This document shows positions 390 to 21,523 of a DNA stretch of 32,000 nt, piece after piece. The translations under genes and the position numbers were made by a program. Source of the stretch: Cylindrospermopsis raciborskii Cr2010. GTDB taxonomy: Bacteria; Cyanobacteriota; Cyanobacteriia; Cyanobacteriales; Nostocaceae. The stretch is taken from positions 780,001 through 812,000 of the forward strand of contig NZ_CP065936.1 of NCBI RefSeq assembly GCF_003367075.2. The letters run 5' to 3'. Position 1 is the stretch's first letter; each line of letters opens with the position of its first letter. The notes beneath the pieces are model-generated. The model ran no database searches and was not told where the DNA came from. It was given only the letters and a program-made list of their open reading frames with translations.

Positions 390-432
390 GCTTTCTATGG
401 TGGTGACGTTTTTAGAGATAACAAATGAGCTA

Positions 433-3845: not shown

Positions 3846-3890
3846 CCATCAACCACAATAATTTTTTAGTTTATTTCTTAATCTATTCAA

Positions 3891-4262: not shown

Positions 4263-4268
4263 TGGTTT

Positions 4269-5483: not shown

Positions 5484-5576
5484 GAAAAAAGATAGAAATC
5501 TGTAACTTCATTTGGCCGATTACCTGCAGGCCATTTGGTACAATAGTTGGGTTGTTTAATCCGATAATCTCTATCT

Positions 5577-6080: not shown

Positions 6081-6240
6081 AATGAGATCATGGCCCCAAC
6101 CACTTACAAGGGGTGGAGTAGGGCCAAAACGCCTACTGATACGAATGACTAATTACCAGTGAGTACTGGGTAATAACTATGATTACTCAGTATTCATCAT
6201 TATTCATTTAAGATAACACTAAAGGTATTATATTTTTCCT

Positions 6241-6732
6241 ATGGCATCTAGTTTTTCTTTCGATATTGTCAGCGATTTTGACCGTCAAGAATTGGTCAAT
6301 GCGGTTGATCAGGTGATACGAGACATCAAAAGCCGTTATGATCTCAAAGATACCCAAACCACCGTGGAGTTGGGGGAAAAAACTGTTACTATTAATACTG
6401 ACAGCAATATGACTTTGGAGTCAGTGCATGGTATACTGCGGGAAAAGGCTGCTAAACGTAATCTATCACAAAAGATCTTTGATTTTGGTCAGGTTGAGTC
6501 TGCTAGCGGTAATCGTGTCCGTCAAGAAATTACCCTGAAAAAGGGCATTAATCAGGATATTGCTAAACAAATATCTAAACTAATTCGTGACAATTTTAAG
6601 AAGGTACAGGCTTCTATTCAAGGGGATGCAGTAAGGGTTACAGCCAAAGCCAAGGATGACTTACAAGCTGTAATCCAAAGCTTAAAAGAAGAGGATTTTC
6701 CTGTAGCTTTACAATTCACTAACTACCGTTAA
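6241..6732 (+). CDS. yajQ: YajQ-family nucleotide-binding protein (UPF0234)
   Basis: The 163 aa length and the N-terminus [24 protein letters not shown] are typical of YajQ. Confidence 0.85.
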
Positions 6733-6753
6733 AACGAGGAATTCCTCTTTCAA

Positions 6754-7314
6754 CTAGTTACTTCTTGCACCTATGGTGTTTTGAAATGCTGGACGAAGGG
6801 AGATGTTATGCATGTAGTTTAAGACTGCTGGGTAGTTACTTAAGTCCAGCTTCAGCATAATGGGGATATAGCTGAGTATAGATCCTACAGCTACATCAGC
6901 AACGGTAAACTGATCCCCTAGTAGAAATGGTTGTTGAGAAAAAATATCATTTAAGGGACCTAATAAACGCGGCATTTCTTTTTCTCGGTTGGTTTCTATG
7001 AATATACCTGTGGCTAAGGTCGAATTAGCAAATAGTACCCACTGGTAAAAGGTTGCTTGGGTCTCTAAAGATGAGGATACCTGACTGTACTTTTGGGCCA
7101 AGTATAACAAAATTGCTCCCGATTCCCAAAGTTTTAACTCACCATCTACAATTGCTGGCACTTTTCCAATAGGATTAATTGCTAAGAAATCTGGTTTTAG
7201 ATGCTCTCCTGCTTTCATATCCAGATTCACAAACTCGTATGGAACATTTAGCTCCTCTAAATACCACTTAATAATTGATGCTCGACTAAAAAGGCTACCG
7301 TATAGTTTCAACAT
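6754..7314 (-). CDS. Glutathione S-transferase
   Basis: Thioredoxin-like N-domain (KLYG...INPIGKVPAIVDGELKLWESGAILLYL) and a helical C-domain; 186 aa. Confidence 0.8.
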   Translation of the reverse strand: MLKLYGSLFSRASIIKWYLEELNVPYEFVNLDMKAGEHLKPDFLAINPIGKVPAIVDGELKLWESGAILLYLAQKYSQVSSSLETQATFYQWVLFANSTLATGIFIETNREKEMPRLLGPLNDIFSQQPFLLGDQFTVADVAVGSILSYIPIMLKLDLSNYPAVLNYMHNISLRPAFQNTIGARSN

Positions 7315-7359
7315 ATTTGACTAATCATTACTCCAAGTTTTTCAAGTGGTAATTTATCT

Positions 7360-7905
7360 TTAAAGCACCTTGTGGGTGTGGGAATGTTGTTTAATATTGT
7401 CTTCTTTGGTAACAATTCTAGCAGCGTTTAATACTCGTTTACGCTCCGTAGAATAATTAAAATCACTTTTAGTTGTGCCAAGGGGAATTAAGCTTTGAGC
7501 TGATTCCCGTCGTTTATAAGTGCGCGTCGCAGAAAATGTTCTTGGCAAAAACTCTTCGCTAAATTGGGCAGTTTCAGGAAATCCAGAGGGTAATAACAGG
7601 TTTTCTCCATCTAGTATGGATCCTAAAGTGGTTGCATAAGCTAGTTTGTATGATGTAGGTATCCCTTTTATTATCGCTTCTAATGCTGCTGAAGGAATTG
7701 GTTCAATAATTTCAAGTTCATGCACCTCTCCATCTTCCTTATAAAAACAAGTCGCTAAACCAATAACTATATAATCATCGGTTCTCAGGTCTAAACCATT
7801 GGGATGGGAAATTGCCGTTGTCATGGAGTTTACTCGGAATGTGAATTTTTCGTGAATTTTTTGGTTTATGCAATAGTAGGGGGTGACACTAGGAGCTGAC
7901 CACAC
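7360..7905 (-). CDS. Conserved hypothetical protein
   Basis: 181-aa ORF. A more plausible start is the internal Met at 7824 (MTTAISHPNG...). No catalytic motif recognised. Confidence 0.45.
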   Translation of the reverse strand: MWSAPSVTPYYCINQKIHEKFTFRVNSMTTAISHPNGLDLRTDDYIVIGLATCFYKEDGEVHELEIIEPIPSAALEAIIKGIPTSYKLAYATTLGSILDGENLLLPSGFPETAQFSEEFLPRTFSATRTYKRRESAQSLIPLGTTKSDFNYSTERKRVLNAARIVTKEDNIKQHSHTHKVL

Positions 7906-8178
7906 AGAGTATTAATCAGCTTTTTGCTTGATTATAACTCCTTACTTCCTCAATTTTGACACACATCCAAATTCTGTCTGGAATTAGTCTTGGGAGTGAT
8001 GTATATGTTTCTGGGTCTATGGCCTAATTGTATAGGTAGTTTGAATTGATTCTCACCTGTTTACTCCTTAATTTCTAAATGGCACACAGATGGCAGTAAT
8101 ACAGTAGTATAATTGAACTACCAGCAAGAAAAATTTTATCGTTTGATTTCATAGGGCAATTAGCTTGAGCAGAAATAT

Positions 8179-8907
8179 ATGGATAGTTACTCTTTTTTAA
8201 ATTCTCACACTCACAATAACCCTTTATATAAAAGAAACAATTGGCAAAGTTCTTACAACTCTTATAACCAAAAAGAATTAGCAGATTCAGATATAGGCAC
8301 TTTAAAGGATGAAAAGTATATGCGATCCTACGCTTTAAAGTTAGCTCATCAAGGAGAGTACACAAAGGCGATCGCCTTGCTGGACCGAATAATTGATAGT
8401 CATCCTGAAAATGCTATTGACTATAATAACAGGGGATTAATCTACTTTCAAAGCGGTCATGCTCAAAAAGCACTTCTGGACTACAATACTGCCATGCAGC
8501 TGAACCCCAGGTTGGCCAGCGTTTATAATAACCGAGCTAACTACTATGCTGCTCGTGGTGATTTAGTTAAGGCACTGTCTGACTATGACCAAGCCTTGGA
8601 TTTAAATCCCCGCTACGTACGCGCCTGGATTAATCGAGGTATTACCTTACGAGAATTAGGAGAGTACAAAGATGCCATTGATGATCTTGAAGTTGCCCTG
8701 CTGTTTGGTCAACTCGAGATTCACATTTGGTCAGAACGGGGTAGGAGTTACCACCTGTGGGGTGATTGGAACTGTGCGATCGCAGATTACCGTAGGGTCT
8801 TATCCCATACAATGTCTTTAGATAAGATAGAGGATATAATCACCTATAGGCTAAGGCTACAAGTGGAAAATTGGTTAGGAGAATTAGGTTTTTCCACATA
8901 TAAATGA
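8179..8907 (+). CDS. Tetratricopeptide-repeat (TPR) protein
   Basis: Successive 34-residue units with the A..YN.RG..Y...G....A..DY..A..L.P signature (for example NNRGLIYFQSGHAQKALLDYNTAMQLNP, YNNRANYYAARGDLVKALSDYDQALDLNP, WINRGITLRELGEYKDAIDDL). Confidence 0.85.
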   Translation: MDSYSFLNSHTHNNPLYKRNNWQSSYNSYNQKELADSDIGTLKDEKYMRSYALKLAHQGEYTKAIALLDRIIDSHPENAIDYNNRGLIYFQSGHAQKALLDYNTAMQLNPRLASVYNNRANYYAARGDLVKALSDYDQALDLNPRYVRAWINRGITLRELGEYKDAIDDLEVALLFGQLEIHIWSERGRSYHLWGDWNCAIADYRRVLSHTMSLDKIEDIITYRLRLQVENWLGELGFSTYK

Positions 8908-8917
8908 ACTAAATATA

Positions 8918-8962
8918 TAAGTGGGTGGGCGGAATTAAATGTAAATTGTGCCTCCCCACTTA
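8918..8962. repeat. Small palindromic dispersed element, copy 1 (intact)
   Basis: TAAGTGGGTGGGCGGAATTAAATGTAAATTGTGCCTCCCCACTTA. The arms AAGTGGGTGGGC and GCCTCCCCACTT pair (10 Watson-Crick, 1 wobble, 1 mismatch). A second copy at 17996-18108 is split by a nested insertion. It lies just after the TPR gene stop. Confidence 0.6.
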
Positions 8963-9370
8963 CTGCGTGGAATCTGGGGGTTCGACAGTTTTTCTGTCCG
9001 GATTAACCAGTATAATTTGCCGCTGGTTAGGTTGTAAGCGGTAGGAGTGTTCTCTCATAATGCTTTGAGCTTGACTAGGATCAAAATTACGGGTAAATTC
9101 TTCTCTTAAGGTGCCAACGCGGTTTTTCATAATCTTAACTTGTGTCTCTATATTTTCTAACTTGTCTTGCTGTAACAAGTAATGGGGGAACAACCGTGTC
9201 AGTGCGGATATTGATACTGAAATAATAAGTAAATTTACTATAATTTTGCCAAAAACTTCCAGTCCCATAATTAAATGCGATCGCTGGCGAAGGTGTCTTT
9301 TCAACTGACGGCGTACAGTTGAAGATGGTTTTTCAGGCTGTAGTGGTGGTATATATTCAAATGCTTTCAT
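8960..9370 (-). CDS. Hypothetical single-pass membrane protein with a short coiled coil
   Basis: 136 aa: basic N-terminus, hydrophobic segment LEVFGKIIVNLLIISVSISAL, then a heptad-like segment QQDKLENIETQVKIMKNRVGTLREEF. The topology resembles FtsB/DivIC-type proteins, but no homology is asserted. Confidence 0.45.
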   Translation of the reverse strand: MKAFEYIPPLQPEKPSSTVRRQLKRHLRQRSHLIMGLEVFGKIIVNLLIISVSISALTRLFPHYLLQQDKLENIETQVKIMKNRVGTLREEFTRNFDPSQAQSIMREHSYRLQPNQRQIILVNPDRKTVEPPDSTQ

Positions 9371-9618
9371 TGTGCTAAATAGCCCTCACGTATCATGCCC
9401 ACCATGGTAATCCATTTAAGCTTCTCCGGTCTAAAGACACGGAGATTTCTGAAGAGTCCATAAACGAACTTTCTGAGGCTGGCTTAAACAGCCTCTACTG
9501 ATTCTGCTAAAATTAATTCTTAGCATCACCGCTACTTTAAGTTGATTTCGAAAGTATAGCTCAGATAAGACTTACTTGTCAATAGCAGCCACAAAATAAC
9601 ATAAAGACAACACTGGAA

Positions 9619-10374
9619 GGCGTTGCATATTTGCGGGATGAATCAACTAAACGCGGGTATTACTTCATACTTTAAATAGTGAAGTAATAATTTAATTGAA
9701 TACCTAAGCATATCTACAGATTTTGAATAGCATAGCGTTTTTCTATGTAGTCGCGCTAAGTAGTGACGTAAACGTGTATTTTCACCCTCTACCCTAGTCA
9801 TATATGTTTTGCTCACAATATGATCCTCTGGCTGAATAAAACTCGGATAAACCCTCCACCCATCAGTAACATAAAAAAAGCATTGCCAGAGTTTAACGAT
9901 GTCCCACAAAGGTTGAAATGCTTGTGAGCTGTGGTCTCCCACAACCCAAGCCAGGATATTTTTACGGAAGTGATTTACTGCTGTCCACAACCATATTTTG
10001 TTTTTTTTTGATCCCACAAAGGTCTCCAACTCATCAAGCTCACCTACCAAGGGTGTTTCCTCAACTGGTGGAGCATCTGGAAGTATGGAACCAATTTGTT
10101 TTAGCCAGTAAATAATAGTTGTATGATGAACGCCTTTATCGCGTTCAATTGCTCTAAATCCCATACCGTTAACATAAGAGCGCAGGCAACTTTGTTTAAC
10201 TTCTTCTGAATAGCCTTTAGGTGGACTATAGACATCGATAAATTGACGACCACAATCAACACAAATGTGATTTTGTTTACCTCGACGTTTGCCATTCTTT
10301 CTGATTTTGGAAGACCCGCAGTTTGGACAATGCACAGTAGATTACCTCAATTCATACCTCTATTATGCAACGCC
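9619..10374 (-). mobile_element. IS1-family insertion sequence (~756 bp)
   Basis: Imperfect terminal inverted repeats: GGCGTTGCATA at 9619-9629 and its complement TATGCAACGCC at 10364-10374, with partial matches extending ~25 bp inward (..ATGAAT..). They enclose a single IS1-type transposase ORF. I could not identify a target-site duplication. Confidence 0.8.
9643..10335 (-). CDS. IS1-family transposase (fused InsAB-type, single ORF)
   Basis: 230 aa with an N-terminal zinc ribbon MHCPNCGSSKIRKNGKRRGKQNHICVDCGRQF, an HTH (GMGFRAIERDKGVHHTTIIYWLKQ) and a DDE-type C-terminal half. An A9 run on the coding strand (T9 at 10001-10009) sits at the InsA/InsB-equivalent junction. Confidence 0.9.
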   Translation of the reverse strand: MHCPNCGSSKIRKNGKRRGKQNHICVDCGRQFIDVYSPPKGYSEEVKQSCLRSYVNGMGFRAIERDKGVHHTTIIYWLKQIGSILPDAPPVEETPLVGELDELETFVGSKKNKIWLWTAVNHFRKNILAWVVGDHSSQAFQPLWDIVKLWQCFFYVTDGWRVYPSFIQPEDHIVSKTYMTRVEGENTRLRHYLARLHRKTLCYSKSVDMLRYSIKLLLHYLKYEVIPAFS

Positions 10375-10487
10375 GAATATTGAAGATCCGCATCACGGTT
10401 AAATATCAAGGCGAATAAATTCGCCGTTGGCACTTCCTGTCTAAAGCCAAGTGGCTTCCGTGCCTTTCGGCGATTTTCTTGTGAGAA

Positions 10488-10529
10488 GCTAAGTGGAAAA
10501 ATATCTATCTTTTGATAGATGCTAAGTGG
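10488..10529 (+). promoter_or_regulatory. Symmetric motif upstream of the island operon: GCTAAGTGG, 7-bp inverted repeat, GCTAAGTGG
   Basis: GCTAAGTGG at 10488-10496 and again at 10521-10529 flanks ATCTATC (10503-10509) tttt GATAGAT (10514-10520). A related AAGTGGCTTCCG at 10449-10460 matches AAGTGGCTTTCCG at 10524-10536. Function unproven. Confidence 0.3.
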
Positions 10530-12814
10530 CTTTCCGCTTGTTTACAGTGTCTGTGTTGTATAAAAGGGGGTATTGGGTTAGCATGAAGGATCTGATTATA
10601 GTTAGTGGGCTTAGTGCGGGTGTGGGTATTGGTGTTATCTTGACGGGTATAGCTAACGGACAAGCTAGTATAGGAGTATTAAGTAGCACTGCTGGTGCTA
10701 TTATGGGAGCTTCTGTAGTTCGCAAGTTGGAAGATGATAGAAATCGGGTCACATTAGTTAAGCTTGAGGAACTAAAAAATCGGGAACTGACAAGACAAGA
10801 ATCAACAAACCTAATCCAACAAATAGAAACTCTTAGGCCAACTGTAAAGCAGTTACAACAAGACCGAGAAAGGGAAGAAGAAAATCTAGTAGTCCTGAGA
10901 GGGAAATTAGGTAATCAGCAAGCTGAGTTAGAATTCATTAGAAGAGAATGGGAGCAAAATCAGTCTAGATTGGAAGATATTACCCAAACAGTTGCCAATC
11001 TGACAGCACAAAAACAGGAATTGGAAAATCGCATCAGTGTGATTAATCAAGAGAATCCTCGTTTATTGGAATTGGAAGAACTCAGACGAGCAATTGAACA
11101 ATCTAGAATTGAGAAAAGTGCTTTAGAAGGAAAAATCAGTGGGCTCACCTCTCAACTGGAATCCTTAGATTCCCGCAGACAAGAAACTGTTTCTATTGAA
11201 TTGGAATTACGGGCTAAAGAAATTGATTTAGAGAAGTTGACCACACAAGTTGAAAATCTGAAAAATCAGTCTCAGGAACTAGAACAACGTGCAGCTGATT
11301 TAGAATTGTTGCGTTTTACCTATGATAATATTATTAAACAAAACCAAGATTATGAGGTAAAAGTTAATCAGTTAAGACCAGAAATACAAAGATTAGAATT
11401 AGAAAAACAACAAATTTTACATTCAATCCAAGAAAATCAAAACGAATACCAAAAAGTCCAAGAATTAAGAGAAAAATTACATAGTTTAAGACTGAGTATT
11501 GCAGACGAAAGCTCAAGGTTAAGAGAGGTAGAAACAGAAACACAGACTTGGCAGGGTAAGAAAGCAGCTTTAGAAGAGAGCAATGGTCATTTACAAGAAC
11601 AAAAACAGGAACTTGAAAGAACAATTAGTAGATACAAACATGAAATTGTAGAAATAGAAAATAGTGCGGAATTAGCCTTACAGCCTTTGAAAGAAAAGCT
11701 TTGGAATAATCTACCACAAATAATTAAACCAAGAAAGCAAGAATCAGAATTTATAGCTGATTTTATTACTAGAATTAGGTCCCAAGGATTAACTTTTTCA
11801 ACTAGAACAGTTAATGCTTTCCACACATCTTTAAAAGTACAAGACATTTCTGCCTTAGTAATTTTAGCAGGGATTAGTGGGACGGGTAAAAGTGAACTAC
11901 CGCAAAGATATGCCAATTATCTTGGTGCCCAATTACTAACATTAGCTGTACAACCACGATGGGATTCTCCCCAGGATTTGCAGGGTTTTTATAACTATGT
12001 AGAAAAGAAATTTAAACCAACTGACTTAATGAGAGGACTATATCAATATGGACAGCCAGACATGCAGGATAGAATAGTCATTGTGTTACTGGATGAAATG
12101 AATTTAGCCAGAGTAGAATATTACTTTAGTGAGTTTTTATCTAAATTGGAAAGTCGCCGTAATCATGCGACTTACTTGGAACTTGATGTGGGTAGTTTAC
12201 GAATTCGTGAAAATGAACGTCGTTTACAAATTCCCAACTCCTTTTTATTTGTGGGAACGATGAATGAAGATGAAACTACGCAGACCCTATCTGACAAAGT
12301 GCTAGATAGAGCTAATGTCTTAACCTTTGGTAGACCCCAAAATTTAAAATTGCGTCAGGAGAATCAAGGAGCAGCAGTTCAACATCACGATTCCAGTTAT
12401 CTACCCTATTCTCATTTTCAATCGTGGGTGAAATTGCCCAATCCCAATTCTGAAATAGTTAGGAGCGTCAAATATTTCCTGAACCAAGCTAATGAGGTAA
12501 TGGAAAAAATGGGACACCCTTTTGCCCATCGTGTTTACCAAGCTATTACTCAATATGTGGTTAACTATCCACAAGTGGAGAGTATTGAATCCCCAGCTTT
12601 TAAATTTGCCCTCGCTGATCAATTTGGACAGAAACTGTTGCCCAAATTACGAGGAGTCATGGTTGACGAAGCTCATGAGCAACTAGAAGAAATGGGCAGA
12701 ATTATTGATGATATCAATGATCAACCATTAATTACAGCCTTTGATAAAGCAAGAAAGGGGCGTTACGGACAGTTTACTTGGCAGGGTTTAGTATATGAAG
12801 ATGAAGAGGTATAA
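10526..12814 (+). CDS. McrB-like AAA+ NTPase with an N-terminal glycine-zipper membrane segment and a ~320-aa coiled coil (CnuB-like)
   Basis: Residue numbers follow the 762-aa ORF. A Gly-zipper/TM-like stretch spans residues 24-65 (GLSAGVGIGVILTGIANG...GAIMGASV). Continuous heptad-rich E/Q/L/R sequence runs ~75-395. Walker A is GISGTGKS (449-456), and Walker B is LLDEMNLARVEYYFSEFLS (521-), matching the McrB DEINRA...FGE block. GTMNEDETTQTLSDKVLDRANV (578-) corresponds to the McrB MNTADRS...ALRRRF block. The likely true start is the ATG at 10583 (MKDLIIV), not the GTG at 10526. Confidence 0.85.
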   Translation: MAFRLFTVSVLYKRGYWVSMKDLIIVSGLSAGVGIGVILTGIANGQASIGVLSSTAGAIMGASVVRKLEDDRNRVTLVKLEELKNRELTRQESTNLIQQIETLRPTVKQLQQDREREEENLVVLRGKLGNQQAELEFIRREWEQNQSRLEDITQTVANLTAQKQELENRISVINQENPRLLELEELRRAIEQSRIEKSALEGKISGLTSQLESLDSRRQETVSIELELRAKEIDLEKLTTQVENLKNQSQELEQRAADLELLRFTYDNIIKQNQDYEVKVNQLRPEIQRLELEKQQILHSIQENQNEYQKVQELREKLHSLRLSIADESSRLREVETETQTWQGKKAALEESNGHLQEQKQELERTISRYKHEIVEIENSAELALQPLKEKLWNNLPQIIKPRKQESEFIADFITRIRSQGLTFSTRTVNAFHTSLKVQDISALVILAGISGTGKSELPQRYANYLGAQLLTLAVQPRWDSPQDLQGFYNYVEKKFKPTDLMRGLYQYGQPDMQDRIVIVLLDEMNLARVEYYFSEFLSKLESRRNHATYLELDVGSLRIRENERRLQIPNSFLFVGTMNEDETTQTLSDKVLDRANVLTFGRPQNLKLRQENQGAAVQHHDSSYLPYSHFQSWVKLPNPNSEIVRSVKYFLNQANEVMEKMGHPFAHRVYQAITQYVVNYPQVESIESPAFKFALADQFGQKLLPKLRGVMVDEAHEQLEEMGRIIDDINDQPLITAFDKARKGRYGQFTWQGLVYEDEEV

Positions 12815-14412
12815 TGAAAATATATTCCAATTTATTTGCCTATCTGAATCAGTCTGAACCGATTTCAAATTCGACTGAATTGAGTGCCAGCGATCGTCCA
12901 ATTATTGTTTTGGAACCACATGAAGATTTATCTTTATCGTCTTGGTTTATCACTATCGTTCCGGGAGTTTATCAAATCGGTTTTCCCTATTTACAACCAG
13001 CTAATTTATCCTATTCTGATGAACATAATTGGCAGGATTTAAGGTCTGTATTGAATTTAGAAGTTTCTAAAAAATCTTATAAGTTACCTATCATGGGTCA
13101 AGTTATGGATCTAGAAACTATCAAAGAGGAAGCAGAAATCGAAGAATGGGAAAATAGATTAGGAAATCGTTTGGATAAAACAGTATCCGAATTAATCCGA
13201 TTATTTATTGGCATGTTTACAGACATATTTAGTGGAGAGAATACCGTAAGATTTAATATGGAATCTCATATTTTGCTCAGTCGAGTACCACAAAAGTTAC
13301 AGTCTGTGAACCTTAAAGATGCCAATTTACCAATTGTAATCAGCTTAGATAAAAAATATCAATTGCGCCGAAAGTTAGAATTAATTGGTGACAAGCTACG
13401 TCATCAACTCAGAAGACAAGCAGAATCAATGCCAGTAGGAAAAATTCAAGAAATGGATAGTTATTGTTTACGAGATTATATTCGTAGACCTGGATTAACT
13501 GCTGTAGAAAAAGCTGGTTCAAAACAAGAACTAATGGGGATTCAAAGATATCAAGATTTTAACACTCCTGAAAATAAATTTCTGGTTTATTTTACTCGAT
13601 ATTTACACTTGAGTTGTTTTCAATATGAAAGAAGTGGAGCAGTTCAGTTTAGGGGAGAAGTTAGAAAAATTAGATTAGTAATTGATTTGTTTCAAAGTCA
13701 GCCAATAGTTAATACCATTCAAAATAAAAACTATCAGTTCACAAAACCAAATTATGTGCTACAGCAAAATGCTACATATAAGAGTTTTTATCAGGCATAT
13801 TTAGAATATGTACGCAAGAGGTATGAAAAAGAGAAGTTATGGAGTTTTAGAAATTCCTTATTGGCGGATGTGGTTTATATTTACTTCACAGCGGCGTTAC
13901 TCAAATTTAATCATGTAAATATAAATGCTGGTTCGCTGGTTAAATCTAACTTAATTGCTGATCAAGGATGTTATTTAACTAGAAATCAAAATGTTACAGT
14001 TAGAGTATTTTTACAGAACCAAGTTTATGTATTTGGCTTGCAGAAACCAGCTGAAATTTCTAGAGGTGATTGGGTGTTAACCTTACAAATTCATCAGTTA
14101 GATTCTAGGGAACTAAATTCCACAAAGTTAGAATTTCCCATTTGGGTATTTTGGTATGTTCCCAGTCAGGATATAATTAGTGAAATGCAAAAAAGGAGTA
14201 GAAGTTTTGATTCATTTTCACAGGCAATTGTATTATATTTACAAGAAAATCCATCAACTTATAATTCGAGTTATGGAGAAAATCATAATCTACAAATTTT
14301 ATCTCCAAATATCAGGTTAATGAAGTTACCAGAAAATTTGACGGAGCAGGGATTTGATCCAACCGTTGAAATAATTAACAGAATGATTACCAATTTGCTT
14401 AAAGGCAATTAA
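12814..14412 (+). CDS. McrC/DUF2357-like partner subunit (CnuC-like); PD-(D/E)xK core apparently degenerate
   Basis: The start ATG overlaps the upstream TAA by 1 nt (TAATG), implying translational coupling. DFNTPENKFLVYFTRYL (residues 248-264) matches the (D)TxxNR(f/i)(l/i)K helix of McrC-type proteins (E. coli NEDTLANRIIKSTL, from memory). YKSFYQAYLEYVRKRY matches the McrC LYQKFLYEFCRR block. At the position of the McrC D...IIDAKYY core I read GDWVLTL...PIWVFWYV. Confidence 0.6.
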   Translation: MKIYSNLFAYLNQSEPISNSTELSASDRPIIVLEPHEDLSLSSWFITIVPGVYQIGFPYLQPANLSYSDEHNWQDLRSVLNLEVSKKSYKLPIMGQVMDLETIKEEAEIEEWENRLGNRLDKTVSELIRLFIGMFTDIFSGENTVRFNMESHILLSRVPQKLQSVNLKDANLPIVISLDKKYQLRRKLELIGDKLRHQLRRQAESMPVGKIQEMDSYCLRDYIRRPGLTAVEKAGSKQELMGIQRYQDFNTPENKFLVYFTRYLHLSCFQYERSGAVQFRGEVRKIRLVIDLFQSQPIVNTIQNKNYQFTKPNYVLQQNATYKSFYQAYLEYVRKRYEKEKLWSFRNSLLADVVYIYFTAALLKFNHVNINAGSLVKSNLIADQGCYLTRNQNVTVRVFLQNQVYVFGLQKPAEISRGDWVLTLQIHQLDSRELNSTKLEFPIWVFWYVPSQDIISEMQKRSRSFDSFSQAIVLYLQENPSTYNSSYGENHNLQILSPNIRLMKLPENLTEQGFDPTVEIINRMITNLLKGN

Positions 14413-14418
14413 CATAAT

Positions 14419-16149
14419 ATGACTTATAATGAGAATTACAACATGGACTTTAGTATGAACTTTAATGAACCTAATGAAACGGAAGAAAATAAAACTGAGG
14501 AACTTGATAGAGGCGGATTTAAAAGACAATTAAAAAAATTAATATATACAGCAGCTGAAATTTCACCTGTTAGCCAAGCACAATGGGAAAAACTATTAGA
14601 GATTTACAATTTTGCCTCATTATCCATAGAATTAATCATACAAACGATCTGTAGGAACAACGCATTTTACTCTCAGGAGCGATTATCCTTAAATTTTCCT
14701 TCCATTAGTCCTAGGATTCCCCTGAGTGCAAATCAACAAATAGCATTGGAAATGGCACTTTCAAATAGTCCTATTACTGTGATTTCTGGAACAGGAGCAA
14801 CAGGAAAAACCTCCATTGCTAAGAATCTTGCTCAAGTGGCTATTGATTCTTCTCATAAGGTGTTGATTTTAGCTCATAATTTGGCATCTTTGTCACCCTA
14901 TTATAATCTAACAAATTATCCGCTGGTACTTTCCCAACAGGGAGATTATTATCAAAAGGTGATCAATCGCTTACGTTATGATAATTTAGCTCAAGCTAAA
15001 ATGGATTATTTGCCATTACATTTGCTACCAGATGTAGAGTTATCAAAATTAAGAACACCAGCAAAATTAGAAAGATGGTTGCCAATTATTGAAAATAACA
15101 GCTATCAACAATTAGCAGATATACTAAAGTTAGAGTCAGAATTTCAAAACTTAACTCAAGCAAGACTACACTTATTAGCTTATCGGTTGAAACAACTATT
15201 GCCTTTTTTACAAGAGCAATTAAGATTAAACCAAATTTATAATCACCTCTCACAAGCAGGAATTGAAGAAATTGCCCGTCAACTTTTAGCCAATCCACAA
15301 ATCACTATTACTGGTACTGTTGCTGAGTTCATGCAGGTGGAAAATAGGCTTTTATGGGAAACTAGTTTTGATATAATCATCGTAGAAGAAGCAAATCGTC
15401 TTCATTGGATACAGCTATTATTTTTGGCAGGATTATGCAAAAAACTGGTTTTATTTGGTGAAGATATCCCTCCAAGATATGGACAACCTAAAAAATCCAT
15501 CCCATATCCTTATAACTGTTTGCAATTTAATTGCTTTCAATGGCTGCAAAGTCATTTATCACCGGCTTATGTTTATACATTAAAGGAACAGTTTAGGCTA
15601 CATTCAGCTATGGCTAAAATTGTCTACCCTTCTATTTGTAATCATTGGGTATATAGTCAATCACATTATATTGATAATAGCCTATCTGGAGTCAACCTAT
15701 CGCAAATTAATAGAAGAGTTGTTTGGCAAGATGTATCTGACACAATGGTAGGGGATAAACCCATAGCAGAAAATATGATTAGATTTTTAGAGAAATTAAT
15801 CAGAAATCACGATGGACAAGTTATGTCCGAAATAGGGATGATTACATTTTCTCCAACCCAGACAGATGCTATTAAGGAAATTTTACCTACAATCTCATCC
15901 ATATATCAGAATCAACTATTTGTTGGTACAGCAGGAGAATGGAGTGGAAAGGAAAGGAAAATCATTATGGTTAATTGTTCAGGTAATCCTAAGGATATTT
16001 CAGTAGAGGATATTAATATAGCCCTAACAAGAGCAAAAGATTATCTATTTTTATTTGGTGACTGTGATGTATGGCTAAGATATAATTCTCCCCTTAAAGC
16101 ATTATTGTATCATCCTGCTGTCTCTCAAGAACGTCAAGTTGTCATCTAA
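14419..16149 (+). CDS. Superfamily-1 helicase, UPF1/DNA2-like (AAA_11/AAA_12 type), with deviant catalytic motifs
   Basis: LSANQQIALEMAL...VISGTGATGKTS is the motif Q-like region plus motif I. VLILAHNLASL is motif Ia. FDIIIVEEANRL is motif II, with EE where DE is expected. LVLFGEDIPP is a shortened motif III. GTAGEWSGKERKIIMV is motif V-like, and INIALTRAKDYLFLFGD is motif VI. The gap to the upstream gene is 6 nt. Confidence 0.75.
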   Translation: MTYNENYNMDFSMNFNEPNETEENKTEELDRGGFKRQLKKLIYTAAEISPVSQAQWEKLLEIYNFASLSIELIIQTICRNNAFYSQERLSLNFPSISPRIPLSANQQIALEMALSNSPITVISGTGATGKTSIAKNLAQVAIDSSHKVLILAHNLASLSPYYNLTNYPLVLSQQGDYYQKVINRLRYDNLAQAKMDYLPLHLLPDVELSKLRTPAKLERWLPIIENNSYQQLADILKLESEFQNLTQARLHLLAYRLKQLLPFLQEQLRLNQIYNHLSQAGIEEIARQLLANPQITITGTVAEFMQVENRLLWETSFDIIIVEEANRLHWIQLLFLAGLCKKLVLFGEDIPPRYGQPKKSIPYPYNCLQFNCFQWLQSHLSPAYVYTLKEQFRLHSAMAKIVYPSICNHWVYSQSHYIDNSLSGVNLSQINRRVVWQDVSDTMVGDKPIAENMIRFLEKLIRNHDGQVMSEIGMITFSPTQTDAIKEILPTISSIYQNQLFVGTAGEWSGKERKIIMVNCSGNPKDISVEDINIALTRAKDYLFLFGDCDVWLRYNSPLKALLYHPAVSQERQVVI

Positions 16150-16163
16150 ATCAACCGTGAATT

Positions 16164-17972
16164 ATGAAAATACAAGTTAGATTATCGGGAAAATTTGAAA
16201 GATTGCTATTAAATGCAACACAAACTACATCCGTATCCTTGAATTATTTAATTCAAGAAGTACAAGCGATATCTACCAAATATCAGAGAAGAACACCTGA
16301 ATTGTTACGTCACTCTTTCGGATTAGATTTTATCCCAGAATCGGTTTTAATTAATTTGTGCAAACAAAGTCGTGGTGCTATGAGAGCAAGTGATATTTAC
16401 CAAGTACCAGCTCTGAAATTGCTCAAACATATAGACTCTCAATTAAATGATCGAGATATTCAGGAATATGCTTATAATTTTGTCTGCGAGGAAGGAAGCA
16501 TTAGTTTAACAGCAGAAGATACACAAATTCCTATTTTTTCTGGTGCTGTTTGTGAACAAATGGGAAATTACCTCCTGACCTTACAAGAATCTGATTACCC
16601 AGGGTTAAACTCAGATTTTATCCAACTACTATGGAATACATCTGAAGATTATTGGCACAATTTACCTGATTTGGAAAAAATTAATTATGCTTTGAAATCT
16701 CATGATTTAAATAATTTCTTTCTTAATTTTGACTGTCACCTATCTAATAATAATTTTCAACAAGTAAAAATTTGGATTTCCATAGAGGAATTACCCCTGA
16801 GATTAAGATCTGCTATTACATTCCTAGGATTTAGTAGTAAAATACAGGAAGATTATATATCAAACTTAACTACAGATGTTCAGTTACTAGTTGATCAATA
16901 TGTGTCAACATACCAACATCAACCCATAGGGTTACCTGATGAAATACAACCAAATCCCTCACATGGGTCTCAAATTAGTTTTGTAATCGATAGTGGTAAA
17001 AATCGGAGAACTATCCACCAAATTATTGACCAAGCAAGTGAGTTTTTACTAGTTTCTAGTTATATTATTGAGGATGAGAACTTAACGGAATTAATTTGTC
17101 ACAAGTCCGCAAAATTACCTGTTTATATATTAACAGATTTAAACAATGAACTTTTAGACCGCATTGATGAACAAATATCAGATTCTATGGTCATACCCGA
17201 ACAATATCAAATAACCGATGAACGTAAAAAATCTTGTTTGAGAATGGTGCTGAGTGAGAATATACCTATTCGCAGTGGTGCTTTTCATTTAAAAACCTAT
17301 ATTTCGGAAAAAGCTGCTTATCTGGGATCCTGTAATCTGACTCGTCGCAGTTTGGACTTTAATACAGAAGCTGGAATAGTGGTTAGTAATAATTCTCAGC
17401 ATGAACACCTAATTAGTTATTTCCAAAACTTTTGGTATAATCACAGTAAAAATGAGGTTATACCTGATGCTAATAGTGATGGGTTTAGGTTGCGCTCCGT
17501 TATTTATCCTCATCAAAGAAAATATAGAAAAAATCATGACAACTTTTTGACATCAGCACAATATCAGCAAGATTTGATAGAAAACCTGCGCAATTTTCCC
17601 CAAAATGAACAGATCAGAATTTATACTCGTAGTTTTCAACCATCTAGGGAAATAGCAGGTTATCTCGGTGCATTAAATACGAGGGTTTTTATTGATTCGA
17701 GTGCGTCTATGAGATATGAAAACTTCTATAGGAAGAGCTTTAATGTTCAGAATATTCGCAAGATTGATAATCTCCATGCTAAGATTACTATCTTAGGGGA
17801 TAAAATAGCTTACATTGGGGGAATTAATTTTAATTTCAATATTGATTTTATTTTCCATAATAATCCTAACTTGAATCATTCAAATTTACATGATTTGATG
17901 TATAAAACTACCAATAAAATGGAAATTAACGAAATCATTGATAGACTAGAAAATCTAAATTTAAAAATCTAA
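16164..17972 (+). CDS. Phospholipase-D-family (double HKD) nuclease with an uncharacterised ~270-aa N-terminal region
   Basis: The first HKD motif is FHLKTYISEKAAYLGSCNLT (H375, K377, GSxN 388-391). The second is LHAKITILGDKIAYIGGINF (H538, K540). Each is preceded by the usual beta-alpha PLD scaffold (EFLLVSSYIIED...LPVYILTD). The gap to the upstream gene is 14 nt. Confidence 0.8.
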   Translation: MKIQVRLSGKFERLLLNATQTTSVSLNYLIQEVQAISTKYQRRTPELLRHSFGLDFIPESVLINLCKQSRGAMRASDIYQVPALKLLKHIDSQLNDRDIQEYAYNFVCEEGSISLTAEDTQIPIFSGAVCEQMGNYLLTLQESDYPGLNSDFIQLLWNTSEDYWHNLPDLEKINYALKSHDLNNFFLNFDCHLSNNNFQQVKIWISIEELPLRLRSAITFLGFSSKIQEDYISNLTTDVQLLVDQYVSTYQHQPIGLPDEIQPNPSHGSQISFVIDSGKNRRTIHQIIDQASEFLLVSSYIIEDENLTELICHKSAKLPVYILTDLNNELLDRIDEQISDSMVIPEQYQITDERKKSCLRMVLSENIPIRSGAFHLKTYISEKAAYLGSCNLTRRSLDFNTEAGIVVSNNSQHEHLISYFQNFWYNHSKNEVIPDANSDGFRLRSVIYPHQRKYRKNHDNFLTSAQYQQDLIENLRNFPQNEQIRIYTRSFQPSREIAGYLGALNTRVFIDSSASMRYENFYRKSFNVQNIRKIDNLHAKITILGDKIAYIGGINFNFNIDFIFHNNPNLNHSNLHDLMYKTTNKMEINEIIDRLENLNLKI

Positions 17973-17995
17973 ATTTATTAAAGTAATTTAGAGAG

Positions 17996-18108
17996 TAAGT
18001 GGGTGGATGGAATTAAATATGAGAGGAACGTAGGTTGGGTTGAAGTATGAAACCCAACGCCCGCATGGGTTTAACCCATCCTACAAATAATTATGCCTCC
18101 CCACATAA
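17996..18108. repeat. Nested repeats: copy 2 of the 8918-type palindromic element, interrupted by a ~61-bp two-hairpin MITE-like element (18030-18090)
   Basis: The outer arms GTAAGTGGGTGGATGGAATTAAATATGAGAG (from 17996) and TTATGCCTCCCCACATAA (18091-18108) match 8918-8962. The inner GTAGGTTGGGTTGAAGTATGAAACCCAACGCCCGCATGGGTTTAACCCATCCTACAAATAA contains the stems GTTGGGTT/AACCCAAC and ATGGGTT/AACCCAT, closed by GTAGG/CCTAC. Confidence 0.75.
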
Positions 18109-18164
18109 TTTAGACCAGGTTCAAAAAAACACAAAAATTTAAAATCAGTAAGGAACAGGAAAAT

Positions 18165-20594
18165 ATGCCTAGATTATTTAATTTACAATCTTATTTTGAT
18201 GCTTGTGAGTATACTTTTTTAGTGAAGGAGGAATCTGATATAGTTCCTCAATCGAGTAGAGACTACAAATCGTTTCTGGATAAATATTCTAATTATCCTT
18301 ATTTAACTGCACCAATAGGTAATAATTTTCTTGCTTCTGAGTTAACTATTAATTCCCAGGAGTTAAATTTCCTATCTATGGGAACTGAACTAAGGGGAGG
18401 AGATAGGGAGCGTTTATTTATCATTAGTGATACTTTAGATTTAATGACCCTGAGTATGAGGTATGGTCTGGGATCTACGGACGGTTATTTATATAGCAGT
18501 GCTTATCATTATTGGAGTCACCGGGAAGCAATAGTTGAAAGACACCTATATAACCCCTCCCCCAAACCATTTAAACCACTAGTATTTATTGATTTCGATA
18601 GTTTTGATATTTCTAGTTTACTTCCAGTTACCTTTATACAACCAGAAAATAGTCCCTACCAAATTCCTATTCTTGATACTAGACATCAGATATCTTTACC
18701 TAGTGTATGCAATTCTCAAGCAACATATTTACGGGTATGTTATTCCATAGCTGAGTTTTTATTACAGCAGCAATTCCCTCAATTATCTACAAATCAGGAA
18801 AGCATTAACCACCTGGGTGATTATTTACGCAAGATTAATTTTTTCAGATTTGTTCAATCTCAAATTGCTCAAGAGTCTATAAGTTTGATTATCGAAGTAG
18901 ACCATGACCACCAAATTTTTTATAAACGAATCACTGTACTTACACTCGATATTGCTAATATTGTTTATCAGCAAATTCAACCGGATATTAACCTTGTCAA
19001 TCAACTTGCTATCCAGTATCCCCAATACCAGTTTGTCTTAATCAGTCAATATAACATTTTTGAGAAAATTTCCTACCTACATTTATCTAACTTTATTTGT
19101 TTCACACCTCAAATCCAAAGGTTTTCAGAGATATGGATCCAAAAAAATCAGCTAGGGTTTCCCTTGTTTGGAATTTATTTAGATCGAATTGAGTTCGCTA
19201 TAGCTATTGATAACCAGGAAGTATGGATTGAGTTATCTGATGAAAAAGATGCTATTTCTTATGAAGGTAAGCTTACAGTCTTAACAGGAAGAATAGCTAG
19301 TAGAGATCAAGACTTTGTGAGAATTCCCCGTGGTAGAAATAGTGCTAATTTACCAATTAGAGTCAATGGTTCTGATTACTCTATCAATGGTGTTCCCCAA
19401 GATTACAGAATTGATATTGAAAACTATCACAATCATCACAGCAACCAAAATGATCAAGAAGTCTTAGTACAAATTCTGTTTTATCTACAACCAGGATCTT
19501 TTCCTAGACTGGAAGTTAAAGACTTGCAAAACCAATATACTATTAAAACTAGTTTGGTCAACAGGGTTAATGTCTCTTATAGCTACATCCCCCCCTCCAG
19601 AATCAGTGAAAATCGTCAACAAAGATCTCTGTCTCAAATTAGACGTTTGAGCGCAAGTGTAGCTCTTGGAAATTTTATGAATTCTTTAAATCAAATCTCT
19701 CAAGTAAATGTCATTAATAGTCGAACTTACGAACAACTAAGTACAAGTTTCAGACAAGCTTATCAACACTTAGGACAGAAACCGAATCCTGATTTGCTAC
19801 AATTTATCGAGGTTTCATCCATTGAGGATGAGGAGATTGTTACAGGGTTGAAACGAAAATTAACAAATTCTCAATTTGACACAGTAATTGATTTTATGAT
19901 TACCACGACTAATCAATATCTAAGACAGAATAGACCTGTAATTTATCACCAGAAAAATTTGCTGATTAATGCAATAATTCTTACTGGTAAATTATATCAA
20001 TTCTCACAATTTATATGTTCACGAGATATGTCAGATAGTTTATTTTCTGACTCCCAGGTGAAATTAATTATTGACAATAGTGGAAGGGACAAAAAAGTGT
20101 CAAATGAGTATTTACAGTGTTTATCAAGAATTGCTGTAACTGAACAACTACAACAAAGATATTTTCAATTATTTGACTTACAATATACATCTGAAACAAG
20201 TCAATACTTGTGGGGGTATGGCAGAATTTTACTTTGGTATTATGATTTTAATAATCCTTCTAACACCTTATTAACTTCTCGTCTATACCTGGAACATTTT
20301 ACAAAAATTATCAACTATTTACTAACTAGACATTATAAAGATTTTGAGTTCCAATACAAACAGAATGCTTTTTTATCTCTTATTTACTTGCTAACTTTTT
20401 GCGCTTATGATGCAAATTTCTGCCGCCCAAATTCAGCAGAATTTCACCTAGCCTTGAGAGTTATTGACAAATTTCAAAATGATAGGATTATTTTGAAAAC
20501 AATTAGTTCTGAAAGACCATTAAATCACTATTTTCAGGAGTTGATTGAAGGACGTTCAACAGAAGATGGCATAGCTAATCTGCTTCAGGGTTAA
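18165..20594 (+). CDS. Large orphan protein (809 aa), function unknown; probable fifth gene of the island
   Basis: Long uninterrupted ORF with an ATG start preceded by AAGGAACAGGAA. Its AT-rich codon usage matches the four upstream genes. I recognise no NTPase, nuclease or protease motif. The C-terminal ~300 aa look alpha-helical and repeat-like. Confidence 0.7.
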   Translation: MPRLFNLQSYFDACEYTFLVKEESDIVPQSSRDYKSFLDKYSNYPYLTAPIGNNFLASELTINSQELNFLSMGTELRGGDRERLFIISDTLDLMTLSMRYGLGSTDGYLYSSAYHYWSHREAIVERHLYNPSPKPFKPLVFIDFDSFDISSLLPVTFIQPENSPYQIPILDTRHQISLPSVCNSQATYLRVCYSIAEFLLQQQFPQLSTNQESINHLGDYLRKINFFRFVQSQIAQESISLIIEVDHDHQIFYKRITVLTLDIANIVYQQIQPDINLVNQLAIQYPQYQFVLISQYNIFEKISYLHLSNFICFTPQIQRFSEIWIQKNQLGFPLFGIYLDRIEFAIAIDNQEVWIELSDEKDAISYEGKLTVLTGRIASRDQDFVRIPRGRNSANLPIRVNGSDYSINGVPQDYRIDIENYHNHHSNQNDQEVLVQILFYLQPGSFPRLEVKDLQNQYTIKTSLVNRVNVSYSYIPPSRISENRQQRSLSQIRRLSASVALGNFMNSLNQISQVNVINSRTYEQLSTSFRQAYQHLGQKPNPDLLQFIEVSSIEDEEIVTGLKRKLTNSQFDTVIDFMITTTNQYLRQNRPVIYHQKNLLINAIILTGKLYQFSQFICSRDMSDSLFSDSQVKLIIDNSGRDKKVSNEYLQCLSRIAVTEQLQQRYFQLFDLQYTSETSQYLWGYGRILLWYYDFNNPSNTLLTSRLYLEHFTKIINYLLTRHYKDFEFQYKQNAFLSLIYLLTFCAYDANFCRPNSAEFHLALRVIDKFQNDRIILKTISSERPLNHYFQELIEGRSTEDGIANLLQG

Positions 20595-20607
20595 ATTCTC
20601 CTCTCAA

Positions 20608-20663
20608 TTATTTGTAGGATGGGTTAAACCCATGCGGGCGTTGGGTTTCATACTTCAACCTAC
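20608..20663. repeat. Inverted copy of the 18030-18090 MITE-like element
   Basis: TTATTTGTAGGATGGGTTAAACCCATGCGGGCGTTGGGTTTCATACTTCAACCTAC equals the reverse complement of 18030-18090 except for a 5-nt indel (CAACC) near one end. Confidence 0.8.
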
Positions 20664-20670
20664 ATTCATA

Positions 20671-20700
20671 TTCATCTTATAGCTGTAGCTATAAGATGAA
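20671..20700. other. Perfect palindrome (14-bp arms) between convergent genes; possible bidirectional terminator hairpin
   Basis: TTCATCTTATAGCT gt AGCTATAAGATGAA. It lies between the 809-aa gene stop (20594) and the sodB stop (20744). No adjacent U-tract on either strand. Confidence 0.35.
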
Positions 20701-20743
20701 CGCTTAAAAGCTCGAACTTTTTATTATTAATGTCTTATCAGAC

Positions 20744-21340
20744 TTAGCCTAAATTTGCAGCAGCAAATTCCCAGTTGGCTAAATTGTCCAAGAAGTTCTT
20801 GATGAATGCTGGACGCGCATTTCTAAAATCTATATAGTAAGCGTGTTCCCATACATCAATGGTTAAGAGTGGCTTTTTACCGTGTACTAAAGGGTTTTCG
20901 GCATTAGGTGTTTTGATTACCTTGAGTGTACCACCATCATCAACTAACCAAGCCCAACCACTGCCGAATTGAGTTGCTGCTGCTGTGGAAAATTCTTCTT
21001 TGAATTTGTCAAAGCTACCAAAGTCTTGACTAATTCTGTCTGCTAATACTCCGGTAGGGACACCGCCACCTGCAGGCTTAAGCGAATTCCAAAAGAAAGT
21101 ATGGTTCCAAACCTGTGCTGCATTGTTGAAAACCCCAGCTTTAGATGCATCTTTGAAGGAAATTTGAATTACTTCTTCAAGAGACTTATCCGCCAAATCT
21201 GTACCTTCAGTGAGCTTGTTTAGGTTATCCACGTATGCTTTGTGATGCTTACCATAATGGTATTCAAAGGTTTCAGCTTTCATGCCGTAACTTTCTAAAG
21301 CGTTAAAGTCGTATGGTAAAGGAAGCTGTGTAAATGCCAT
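20744..21340 (-). CDS. sodB: Iron superoxide dismutase
   Basis: MAFTQLPLPYDFNALE...FEYHYGKHHKAYVDNLN...AQVWNHTFFW...GSGWAWL...DVWEHAYYIDF shows the classic Fe/Mn-SOD metal ligands, and the AQVWNHTFFW context is Fe-type. Confidence 0.95.
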   Translation of the reverse strand: MAFTQLPLPYDFNALESYGMKAETFEYHYGKHHKAYVDNLNKLTEGTDLADKSLEEVIQISFKDASKAGVFNNAAQVWNHTFFWNSLKPAGGGVPTGVLADRISQDFGSFDKFKEEFSTAAATQFGSGWAWLVDDGGTLKVIKTPNAENPLVHGKKPLLTIDVWEHAYYIDFRNARPAFIKNFLDNLANWEFAAANLG

Positions 21341-21523
21341 TTTTTCAAATCCTCTCTTTATGGTTTTCCCGCGTGAGCTATTGTCCCACCTTGGCTAGAG
21401 AAATCCCAAGCTGTGTGGCCACTCGCACCAACTATAACAGAAATTATCAAAAAATACAATAACAATACAGGGTTGTAGAGAGTGAACACCAAATTTAATA
21501 AATTTGAAAGGATTCATGGAGTA

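Follow-up and report, generated by a model that had tools for sequence, protein, structure and literature searches.

A probable CnuD subunit at the end of a putative Type III-C CoCoNuT operon of Cylindrospermopsis raciborskii, and the nested repeats on either side of its gene

What is encoded by an open reading frame (ORF) of 809 codons that lies between two inverted copies of one and the same repeat, and do those copies have any part in what the protein does? The question is raised by a 32,000-nt stretch of Cylindrospermopsis raciborskii Cr2010 (contig NZ_CP065936.1, positions 780,001 to 812,000; the whole stretch is referred to here as the window, and coordinates are counted from its first nucleotide). 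An initial annotation, made from the sequence of the window, had described the ORF as a motif-less orphan that belongs with four genes upstream of it, and had offered the flanking repeats as relics of insertion, as an RNA switch or as sites of DNA inversion. We consider it likely that the ORF is CnuD, the last gene of a Type III-C CoCoNuT operon with the gene order cnuB-cnuC-cnuH-cnuE-cnuD, and that the repeats are copies of selfish elements that stand outside its machinery. Both kinds of thing, a CoCoNuT operon and a repetitive extragenic palindrome (REP) nested in a MITE (miniature inverted-repeat transposable element), have already been described, and CnuD itself has been published computationally.

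The 809-residue protein and its predicted fold

The feature at the centre of the analysis is the following.

18165 to 20594, plus strand: cnuD, 809 aa, with a predicted Hsp70-like fold of nucleotide-binding and substrate-binding domains (NBD/SBD) over residues ~ 1–540 and a predicted all-helical C-terminal domain over residues ~ 545–809

The ORF is present with the coordinates and length first given for it. No significant match to its product was obtained in Pfam, NCBIfam or PADLOC, nor when PDB sequences were searched by hmmsearch with a profile of the family, and nine distant relatives were likewise without a Pfam match. The description of the protein as lacking a sequence-level motif therefore holds, whereas its status as an orphan does not, as it has many homologues and a counterpart in CnuD. 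Fifty-four clusters of homologues (90% identity, E values from 0 to 2e-66) were recovered from 5.8 billion proteins. All named members come from filamentous cyanobacteria (Cylindrospermopsis/Raphidiopsis, Nodularia, Anabaena, Dolichospermum, Trichormus, Tolypothrix, Hassallia, Calothrix, Limnospira/Arthrospira, Planktothrix and Crinalium) and all are annotated as ‘hypothetical’, while the exact protein of the window is annotated as ‘MULTISPECIES... Cylindrospermopsis’. When 1.84 billion representatives at 50% identity were searched exhaustively with a profile, just 113 relatives were returned, so the family is a small one; its members are ~ 780–810 aa long and come mostly from filamentous cyanobacteria. 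The gene is under purifying selection, with a dN/dS of 0.25 in comparison with C. curvispora and of 0.19 in comparison with R. curvata.

Structure prediction was carried out with AlphaFold2 (AF2). A first model, based on an alignment of 30 sequences, had a predicted local distance difference test score (pLDDT) of 75.7 with residues 1–107 unmodelled, and was replaced by a second one based on 60 sequences, including relatives at 16–30% identity (pLDDT 87.2, predicted template modelling score 0.64). The modelled chain is alpha/beta up to residue ~ 335, continues as a beta-sandwich (336–466) and a pair of regions made of helices, long ones at 477–536 and an all-helical part that extends to residue 808. 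With either model as the query, the top 50 Foldseek matches in the PDB were all members of the Hsp70 family, spread over DnaK, BiP, Hsp110/Sse1, Ssb, Ssz1 and mortalin; the second model reached a best E value of 8.6e-8 over alignments of 420–600 columns at 6–10% identity. The searches for remote homology and structure that had been suggested for this protein thus gave two kinds of result, with blank profiles on the one hand and an Hsp70 fold for the AF2 model on the other. Alignment of the family profile to Escherichia coli DnaK by hhalign gave a probability of 0.03%, and together with the absence of Pfam and NCBIfam matches this means that CnuD is Hsp70-like by predicted fold only and lies outside the Hsp70 sequence family (PF00012).

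Canonical Hsp70s (DnaK, BiP, Hsp110/Sse1, Ssb, Ssz1) share with the CnuD model the predicted order of an actin-like ATPase, a beta-sandwich and a helical lid. They differ from it in that CnuD is predicted to carry an additional C-terminal helical domain of ~ 260 residues, and in genomic setting, as cnuD sits in a nuclease operon and not with DnaJ and GrpE.

The operon and the assignment of the system

Nine homologous loci, with CnuD identities ranging from 96% down to 18%, were examined: Crinalium PCC 9333, Planktothrix PCC 11201, C. curvispora GIHE-G1, R. curvata NIES-932, a paralogous system of C. raciborskii, Calothrix NIES-22, Limnospira, Trichormus NMC-1 and a remote relative. The cnuD homologue was the fifth and last gene, in operon orientation, in all nine, while the genes flanking the operons were unrelated. 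The membership of the 809-residue protein with the four genes upstream, as originally suggested, is borne out by this arrangement, and so is its co-occurrence with an McrB-like gene, which was found at every one of the loci. A McrC-like gene of the DUF2357 kind also occupies the same position in all of them.

Spacing between the fourth and fifth genes was far more variable. The two genes overlap by 8 nt in the remote relative, by 4 nt in both Crinalium and Planktothrix and by 1 nt in Limnospira, and are separated by 3 nt in Calothrix and in Trichormus, by 13 nt in the paralogous C. raciborskii system, by 60 nt in R. curvata (without any repeat), by 123 nt in C. curvispora (with the outer element described below only) and by 192 nt in the window. 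Since junctions in other genera overlap or nearly overlap, tight coupling is ancestral and the 192-nt gap derived. The series fits the earlier proposal that the gene was once contiguous with the operon and that repeats later colonised both of its spacers.

The five operon genes have a GC content of 32–37% (24–28% at third codon positions, GC3). Nine other ORFs were measured for comparison; in five of these (sodB, the TPR and GST genes and two more) GC is 39–48%, and the remaining four overlap or nearly overlap the range of the operon. Correlation of codon usage between the fifth gene and genes 2–4 was 0.84–0.90. GC, GC3 and codon correlation all agree with the initial annotation, which had likened the 809-aa gene to the four upstream genes in composition and codon bias. 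These four are as follows.

10526 to 12814, plus strand: cnuB, a long N-terminal coiled coil fused to an McrB-like AAA+ GTPase
12814 to 14412, plus strand: cnuC, McrC-like with a DUF2357 N-terminal domain, its start overlapping the cnuB stop
14419 to 16149, plus strand: cnuH, a superfamily 1 (SF1, UPF1/IGHMBP2-like) helicase
16164 to 17972, plus strand: cnuE, a nuclease with two phospholipase D (PLD, HKD) domains

In CnuB, Pfam AAA_5 was matched at residues 445–595, with PADLOC PDC-M26A as a candidate at 2.7e-43, and the coiled coil (residues ~ 40–425, mostly 80–395) gave matches to coiled-coil regions of JetC, SMC, Rad50 and DndD in PADLOC and NCBIfam. Its translation reads GISGTGKS at Walker A, LLDEMN at Walker B and MNEDE at the signature (in ...FVGTMNEDETT..., i.e. 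NxD followed by E). The DUF2357 match in CnuC was at 7.3e-07 (29.1 bits against a cut-off of 23.3), and no obvious D...ExK motif was seen on reading its translation. CnuH matched AAA_12 (1.5e-10) and, more weakly, AAA_11 and AAA_30 in Pfam, a partial IGHMBP2-family model in NCBIfam, and the MkoA/MkoC helicases in PADLOC. In CnuE, PLDc_2 was found at residues 285–424 (7.4e-20) and a PLDc HKD motif at 536–558 (2e-07), along with DrmC-like matches in both PADLOC and NCBIfam. The end of cnuE also carries a perfect tandem duplication of 14 bp (AAAATCTAAATTTA, twice, 17950–17977) that spans its stop codon; the unit is present in a single copy in C. curvispora, where the C-terminus of CnuE differs by two residues (602 aa versus 600 aa).

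The clade to which we assign these genes was delineated by Bell et al. (2024, eLife, PMC11090510) by an NxD signature in McrB, usually followed by E or D, together with a fused coiled coil. Its Type III-C is described as "primarily found in... Cyanobacteriota", with a CnuE that has two PLD domains and a separately encoded CnuD that consists of an Hsp70-like NBD/SBD and HEAT-like repeats (PMC11090510). Also described are an IG-like N-terminal domain and an inactivated PD-(D/E)xK nuclease in the McrC homologue, a helical insertion after Walker A in CnuH and a distorted wHTH at the N-terminus of CnuE. Shared by the window are an NxD coiled-coil CnuB, a DUF2357 CnuC, a UPF1-like CnuH, a two-PLD CnuE, a separate CnuD, a cyanobacterial host and the absence of a TerY-P module. 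At the protein level no difference from Type III-C was found. What this lineage has of its own is the nested MITE that loosens the cnuE/cnuD junction, the inverted copy after cnuD and an IS1-family insertion before cnuB. Within the literature searched, the name CnuD occurs only in the paper of Bell et al. and its preprint.

Several observations were made on related operons. The remote CnuD relative (18% identity) lies on a contig of the Logan assembly SRR6056609, where genes in the same five-gene arrangement occupy positions 2119–11256; no AAA_5 match was recorded for the first of them. A flagellin gene is carried on the same contig, which for this reason is probably not cyanobacterial, and the family and its operon hence probably reach outside the cyanobacteria. 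A second, paralogous Type III-C-like operon exists in C. raciborskii itself (JAPTYE010000003.1, stretch 1–12412), with a CnuD that is 56% identical, an extra coiled-coil AAA_5 gene directly upstream of cnuB and an SMC_N/AAA_15-type ATPase gene downstream.

Following Bell et al. (PMC11090510), CnuD would be an Hsp70-like, poorly hydrolysing adaptor that binds a ligand associated with infection, the proposed ligand being RNA that is aberrant, viral or associated with ribosomes. CnuD may dock, via its helical or coiled-coil part, on the complex of the coiled-coil CnuB GTPase with CnuC, and would from there direct or license the CnuH helicase and the double-PLD nuclease CnuE to destroy nucleic acid of the invader; the operon as a whole would then be a McrBC-derived defence system resembling Type IV restriction. 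The parts of the overall scheme on which the present data bear directly are the predicted fold, the conservation of the operon, purifying selection on cnuD, its NxD GTPase, helicase and double-PLD partners, the membership of the repeats in a family and their presence/absence polymorphism.

The ligand may also be a protein. In this case CnuD would sense an unfolded or phage polypeptide (capsid, scaffold or stalled nascent chains) and so activate CnuBC and CnuHE, with the identity of the gene and the operon unchanged, a possibility that we regard as tenable but clearly the less likely one. It is favoured by the fact that the only fold relatives of CnuD are protein chaperones, ribosome-associated Ssb and Ssz1 among them, by the succession of beta-sandwich (336–466) and helices (477–536), which is the layout of an SBD-beta with its lid, and by Pfam and NCBIfam searches in which no canonical RNA-binding domain of CnuD was detected. 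The very low ATP turnover argued for CnuD on the basis of its degenerate Walker A-like motifs (PMC11090510), on the other hand, suits the binding of RNA better than the remodelling of proteins. Phosphate-binding motifs of CnuD do appear degenerate here: the first strand of the family reads RLFNLxSY versus IGIDLGTT in Hsp70, and a tentative alignment by eye places an invariant Asn of this strand at the position of the catalytic Asp, which likewise speaks against a protein remodeller.

The repeats around cnuD

Returning to the reading of the repeats as selfish elements, four features are distinguished next to cnuD.

17996 to 18108, plus strand: outer MITE-like element, 113 bp, with imperfect terminal inverted repeats (TAAGTGGGTGGATGGAATTA... 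/ ...TAATTATGCCTCCCCACATAA)
18030 to 18084, plus strand: upstream inner unit, 55 nt (GTAGGTTGGGTTGAAGTATGAAACCCAACGCCCGCATGGGTTTAACCCATCCTAC), with GTAGG...CCTAC termini, nested in the outer MITE
20606 to 20663, minus strand: downstream copy, with the inner unit at 20614–20663 (50 nt, without TTGGG) and only remnants of the outer element around it
20671 to 20700, no strand assigned: AU-rich hairpin with a perfect 14-bp stem and a T-rich tract after it, located where cnuD and sodB converge

Inverted copies do bracket the 809-residue ORF. Their arms, 18038–18092 and 20606–20660, are 55 nt long, 100% complementary and 2513 nt apart, and a 29-nt core of the repeat did not occur in any of 100 dinucleotide-preserving shuffles. 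The coordinates initially given for the copies (18030–18090 and 20608–20663) and their offsets are essentially right, at 74 nt before the start and ~ 12–14 nt after the stop, but the two copies are not equal, as their lengths differ. The perfect arm runs for 8 nt (AAATAATT) into the outer element around it. The 192-bp gap had been described as filled by nested repeats, and it is indeed occupied for the most part by the outer element, with the inner unit inside it. A search of 17800–20900 against Rfam gave no family match for the repeats; a DUF805b hit inside the cnuD ORF (21.5 bits against a gathering threshold of 35.6) was discarded as a chance match. A consensus scan of the cnuE-cnuD spacer found no sigma-70-like promoter, which is weak negative evidence as regards a promoter of cnuD’s own.

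The inner unit consists of two short hairpins placed tail to tail, with GTAG at each outer end, in the manner of a REPIN doublet. It reads GTAG-GTTGGGTT...AACCCAAC on one strand and GTAG-GATGGGTT.AAACCCAT(G) on the other, and fits the architecture of GTAG-tagged REPs and REPINs, in which short tagged palindromes are found as two units in inverted orientation. It is also nested in another small repeat, and in this can be likened to the nested small dispersed repeats of cyanobacteria that Elhai and colleagues reportedly described in 2008. With the GTAG-tagged REPs and REPINs of the literature (Di Nocera et al. 2013, PMC3733652; Bertels & Rainey 2011, PMC3116915) it shares an intergenic, dispersed and strain-variable occurrence and paired, GTAG-tagged imperfect palindromes; families of such REPs have been reported in filamentous as well as unicellular cyanobacteria (PMC3733652).

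Scanning representative genomes for an exact 30-nt core pattern yielded 15 stretches, nearly all of them from Microcystis, with one from Leptolyngbyaceae and one from an uncultured bacterium. Alignment of the stretches revealed a composite architecture, TAAGTAGGTGGGTGGAATTAAATATAAGATGAAC - [GTAGG...CCTAC unit] - AAATAATTGTGCCTCCCTACTTA, ~ 113–125 bp long with imperfect terminal inverted repeats of ~ 20 nt. The element ends (TAAGTAGGTGGGTGGAATTA and, as its reverse complement, TAAGTAGGGAGGCACAATTA) are common to around a dozen Microcystis loci whose flanks are unrelated. These flanks are compatible with a target-site duplication of TA or TTA but are too short for proof, and no transposase with ends matching the outer element was identified. 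The element is non-coding, shorter than 600 bp, bounded by terminal inverted repeats, present at unrelated loci and polymorphic for presence and absence, as is characteristic of MITEs. The inner unit occurs by itself, without the outer element, in two stretches of the family (L015 and L009), and elsewhere in the family there are additional nested insertions, copies in tandem or deletions of internal sequence; each of the two layers acts as a module that can occur without the other. The REP/REPIN class is marked by many dispersed copies within a genome and an associated RAYT transposase; the copies counted here amount to two in the 32-kb window and three, full or partial, in 22 kb of C. curvispora.

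Microcystis genomes are rich in MITEs (PMC2779907). The outer element resembles MaeMITEa-h of Microcystis aeruginosa NIES-843 (PMC2779907) and Nezha of Anabaena in being non-coding with imperfect terminal inverted repeats; at ~ 113–125 bp it is shorter than the MaeMITEs (176–429 bp, PMC2779907), and no named family was matched. A related composite element was also observed in the Microcystis phages Ma-LMM01 and MaMV-DC/DL, at 74–76% identity (NC_008562.1, 18149–18271; KF356199.1, 20196–20276). The sharing of the element by Cylindrospermopsis, Microcystis and Microcystis phages may reflect an exchange of repeats between genera that bloom together, perhaps carried by phages.

Closer relatives were compared locus by locus. 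The window is collinear with C. curvispora over 10482–21464, at 95.7% identity. Upstream of cnuD, C. curvispora has the outer element and lacks the inner unit at an otherwise conserved site, a difference of 51 bp that can be either an insertion in the window or a deletion in C. curvispora, given that internal-deletion variants and stand-alone inner units are both known in the family. Downstream of cnuD it has an orthologous, diverged copy that retains 33 bp more of the outer element; in this species cnuD also stands between the arms of a perfect 22-nt inverted repeat formed by outer-element sequence. In R. curvata NIES-932 no repeat is present on either side of the gene, and the downstream sequence is unrelated. 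Six C. raciborskii assemblies with an identical CnuD protein carry the same repeats, and two of these (CP195152.1 and a JGI contig) have, within the first hairpin loop of the upstream arm, a 4-nt GAAT duplication (GAAGTATGAATGAAACCC), from which it follows that perfect complementarity of the arms is not maintained.

The hairpin at 20671–20700 is partly made from outer-element sequence (ATAAGATGAA), and the fold of 20595–20743 has a z value of -4.9. It is a probable bidirectional terminator common to cnuD and sodB; it went uncalled in a consensus scan for terminators, its stem having too few G-C pairs.

Other variation was seen in the vicinity. C. curvispora has an additional copy of the repeat (1761–1825 of its stretch) between the TPR gene and a gene for a 136-aa protein, where the corresponding window site (~ 8944–8959) is empty, a presence/absence polymorphism opposite in direction to that at the cnuD site. 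Compared with C. curvispora, the window has an insertion of ~ 1 kb (9416–10481) ending ~ 45 bp upstream of the cnuB start, with an IS1-family transposase ORF on the minus strand (9643–10335; PF03400, 1.7e-26) and 25-nt inverted repeats (9619–9643 and 10350–10374, 84% complementary). This insertion may have displaced or replaced the promoter of the operon in this strain. Synteny between the two stops ~ 120 bp past sodB (from 21464 in the window and from 13336 in C. curvispora), and downstream of sodB there are differences among the C. raciborskii assemblies as well, so that the operon may have a hotspot of rearrangement as its neighbour.

Selfish passengers or functional arms

If the repeats are selfish passengers, the nested element would have settled in the only two non-coding spaces beside cnuD, turning an overlapping cnuE/cnuD junction into a structured spacer of 192 nt. 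Such passengers would be neutral, and would likely undo the translational coupling between cnuE and cnuD and give the spacer and the 3′ end additional RNA structure.

Five points weigh against the combined assignment of CnuD, CoCoNuT and selfish repeats. First, the literature searched contains no experimental test of any CoCoNuT, so that defence, RNA targeting and the role of CnuD are predictions. Second, the Hsp70 assignment comes from a predicted structure, all sequence-profile methods having returned blanks. Third, the TM-scores of CnuD against Hsp70s are low (0.27–0.39), which we put down to the arrangement of domains. Fourth, the exact 30-nt pattern matched no representative genome of Cylindrospermopsis/Raphidiopsis, and so lends no support to a high copy number in the genus. 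Finally, the arms in the window are 100% identical over 55 nt, yet the downstream copy of C. curvispora is at 88% amid flanks of 95.7% identity. This last contrast is suggestive of recent copying, or of gene conversion, among members of the family, neutral decay alone being insufficient to account for it.

Arm identity is also among the arguments for a functional role of the repeats in RNA. Much as had been proposed initially, the arms could pair on a read-through cnuBCHED mRNA into 55 bp of double-stranded RNA (dsRNA) that loops out cnuD; cleavage by RNase III, or a switch in translation, would then set the dosage of CnuD independently of the other four genes. Both arms do lie on the sense transcript, ahead of the probable terminator; the duplex between them (-106 kcal/mol) is predicted to be much more stable than the local folds of the upstream (-23 kcal/mol) and downstream (-18 kcal/mol) arms; the arms are identical even though the orthologous copy of C. 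curvispora has diverged; and in the latter species cnuD is bracketed by the 22-nt inverted repeat of the outer element. Each arm would however fold singly during transcription, with 2.4 kb of translated mRNA between the two. The repeats are missing in R. curvata as well as in every other genus, in which translation of cnuD is coupled to that of cnuE, the inner arm is absent upstream in C. curvispora, and the GAAT duplication interrupts the arm in two C. raciborskii assemblies. Elements of the family are furthermore scattered over unrelated loci and have no Rfam match. The switch is thus possible on thermodynamic grounds and finds no comparative support, being absent from most orthologous operons, variable in close relatives and made of a dispersed family, and we hold it to be improbable.

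A variant of this idea, which we rate marginally lower still, allows for both a selfish origin and a later function: a doublet borne by a MITE would have been copied or converted recently to both sides of cnuD and would now be domesticated as an RNA clamp that uncouples the level of CnuD from that of the nuclease and the helicase. The clamp would act through the 55-bp dsRNA, either cut by RNase III or blocking the ribosome-binding region of cnuD. If true, this would be a case of a domesticated selfish repeat that tunes the trigger threshold of a defence system.

Rearrangement of DNA through the arms, whether by recombination that inverts cnuD as a phase switch or by two elements that mobilise it as a composite transposon, is very improbable: a perfect repeat of 55 bp is long enough for RecA-dependent inversion, and four Logan short-read assemblies each have a cnuD-only contig, exactly 2573 bp long, whose ends fall inside the two arms (102 nt upstream and 41 nt downstream) and which does not show the orientation of cnuD, but breaks of this kind are the usual behaviour of de Bruijn assemblers at repeats, there is no adjacent gene for a site-specific invertase, the arms are not kept perfect (the 4-nt duplication), and in every assembly that resolves the locus, including the three complete genomes CP060822.1, CP195152.1 and CP091284.1 as well as several drafts, cnuD is co-oriented with the operon, so that the inversion once suggested for the gene finds no support. 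The composite-transposon or MITE-cargo version was rejected, since cnuD keeps its position as the fifth gene and its orientation in all nine loci, nearly all of which are free of repeats.

With the reading of CnuD as the last subunit of a Type III-C CoCoNuT, and of the repeats as passengers, the gain is in the first place one of annotation: a ‘hypothetical protein’ of bloom-forming Cylindrospermopsis/Raphidiopsis that is invisible to profiles can be named CnuD, and the five genes a Type III-C CoCoNuT, at the confidence given above. What an Hsp70-like subunit does in a system derived from McrBC is a question for the published family and is not specific to the window. The repeat bracket would be a lineage-specific by-product of MITE and REP elements, whose chief practical effect is the fragmentation of short-read assemblies at the two arms. 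That the element is nearly identical in Cylindrospermopsis and Microcystis, with a related copy in phages, is a small but real hint of an exchange of repeats.

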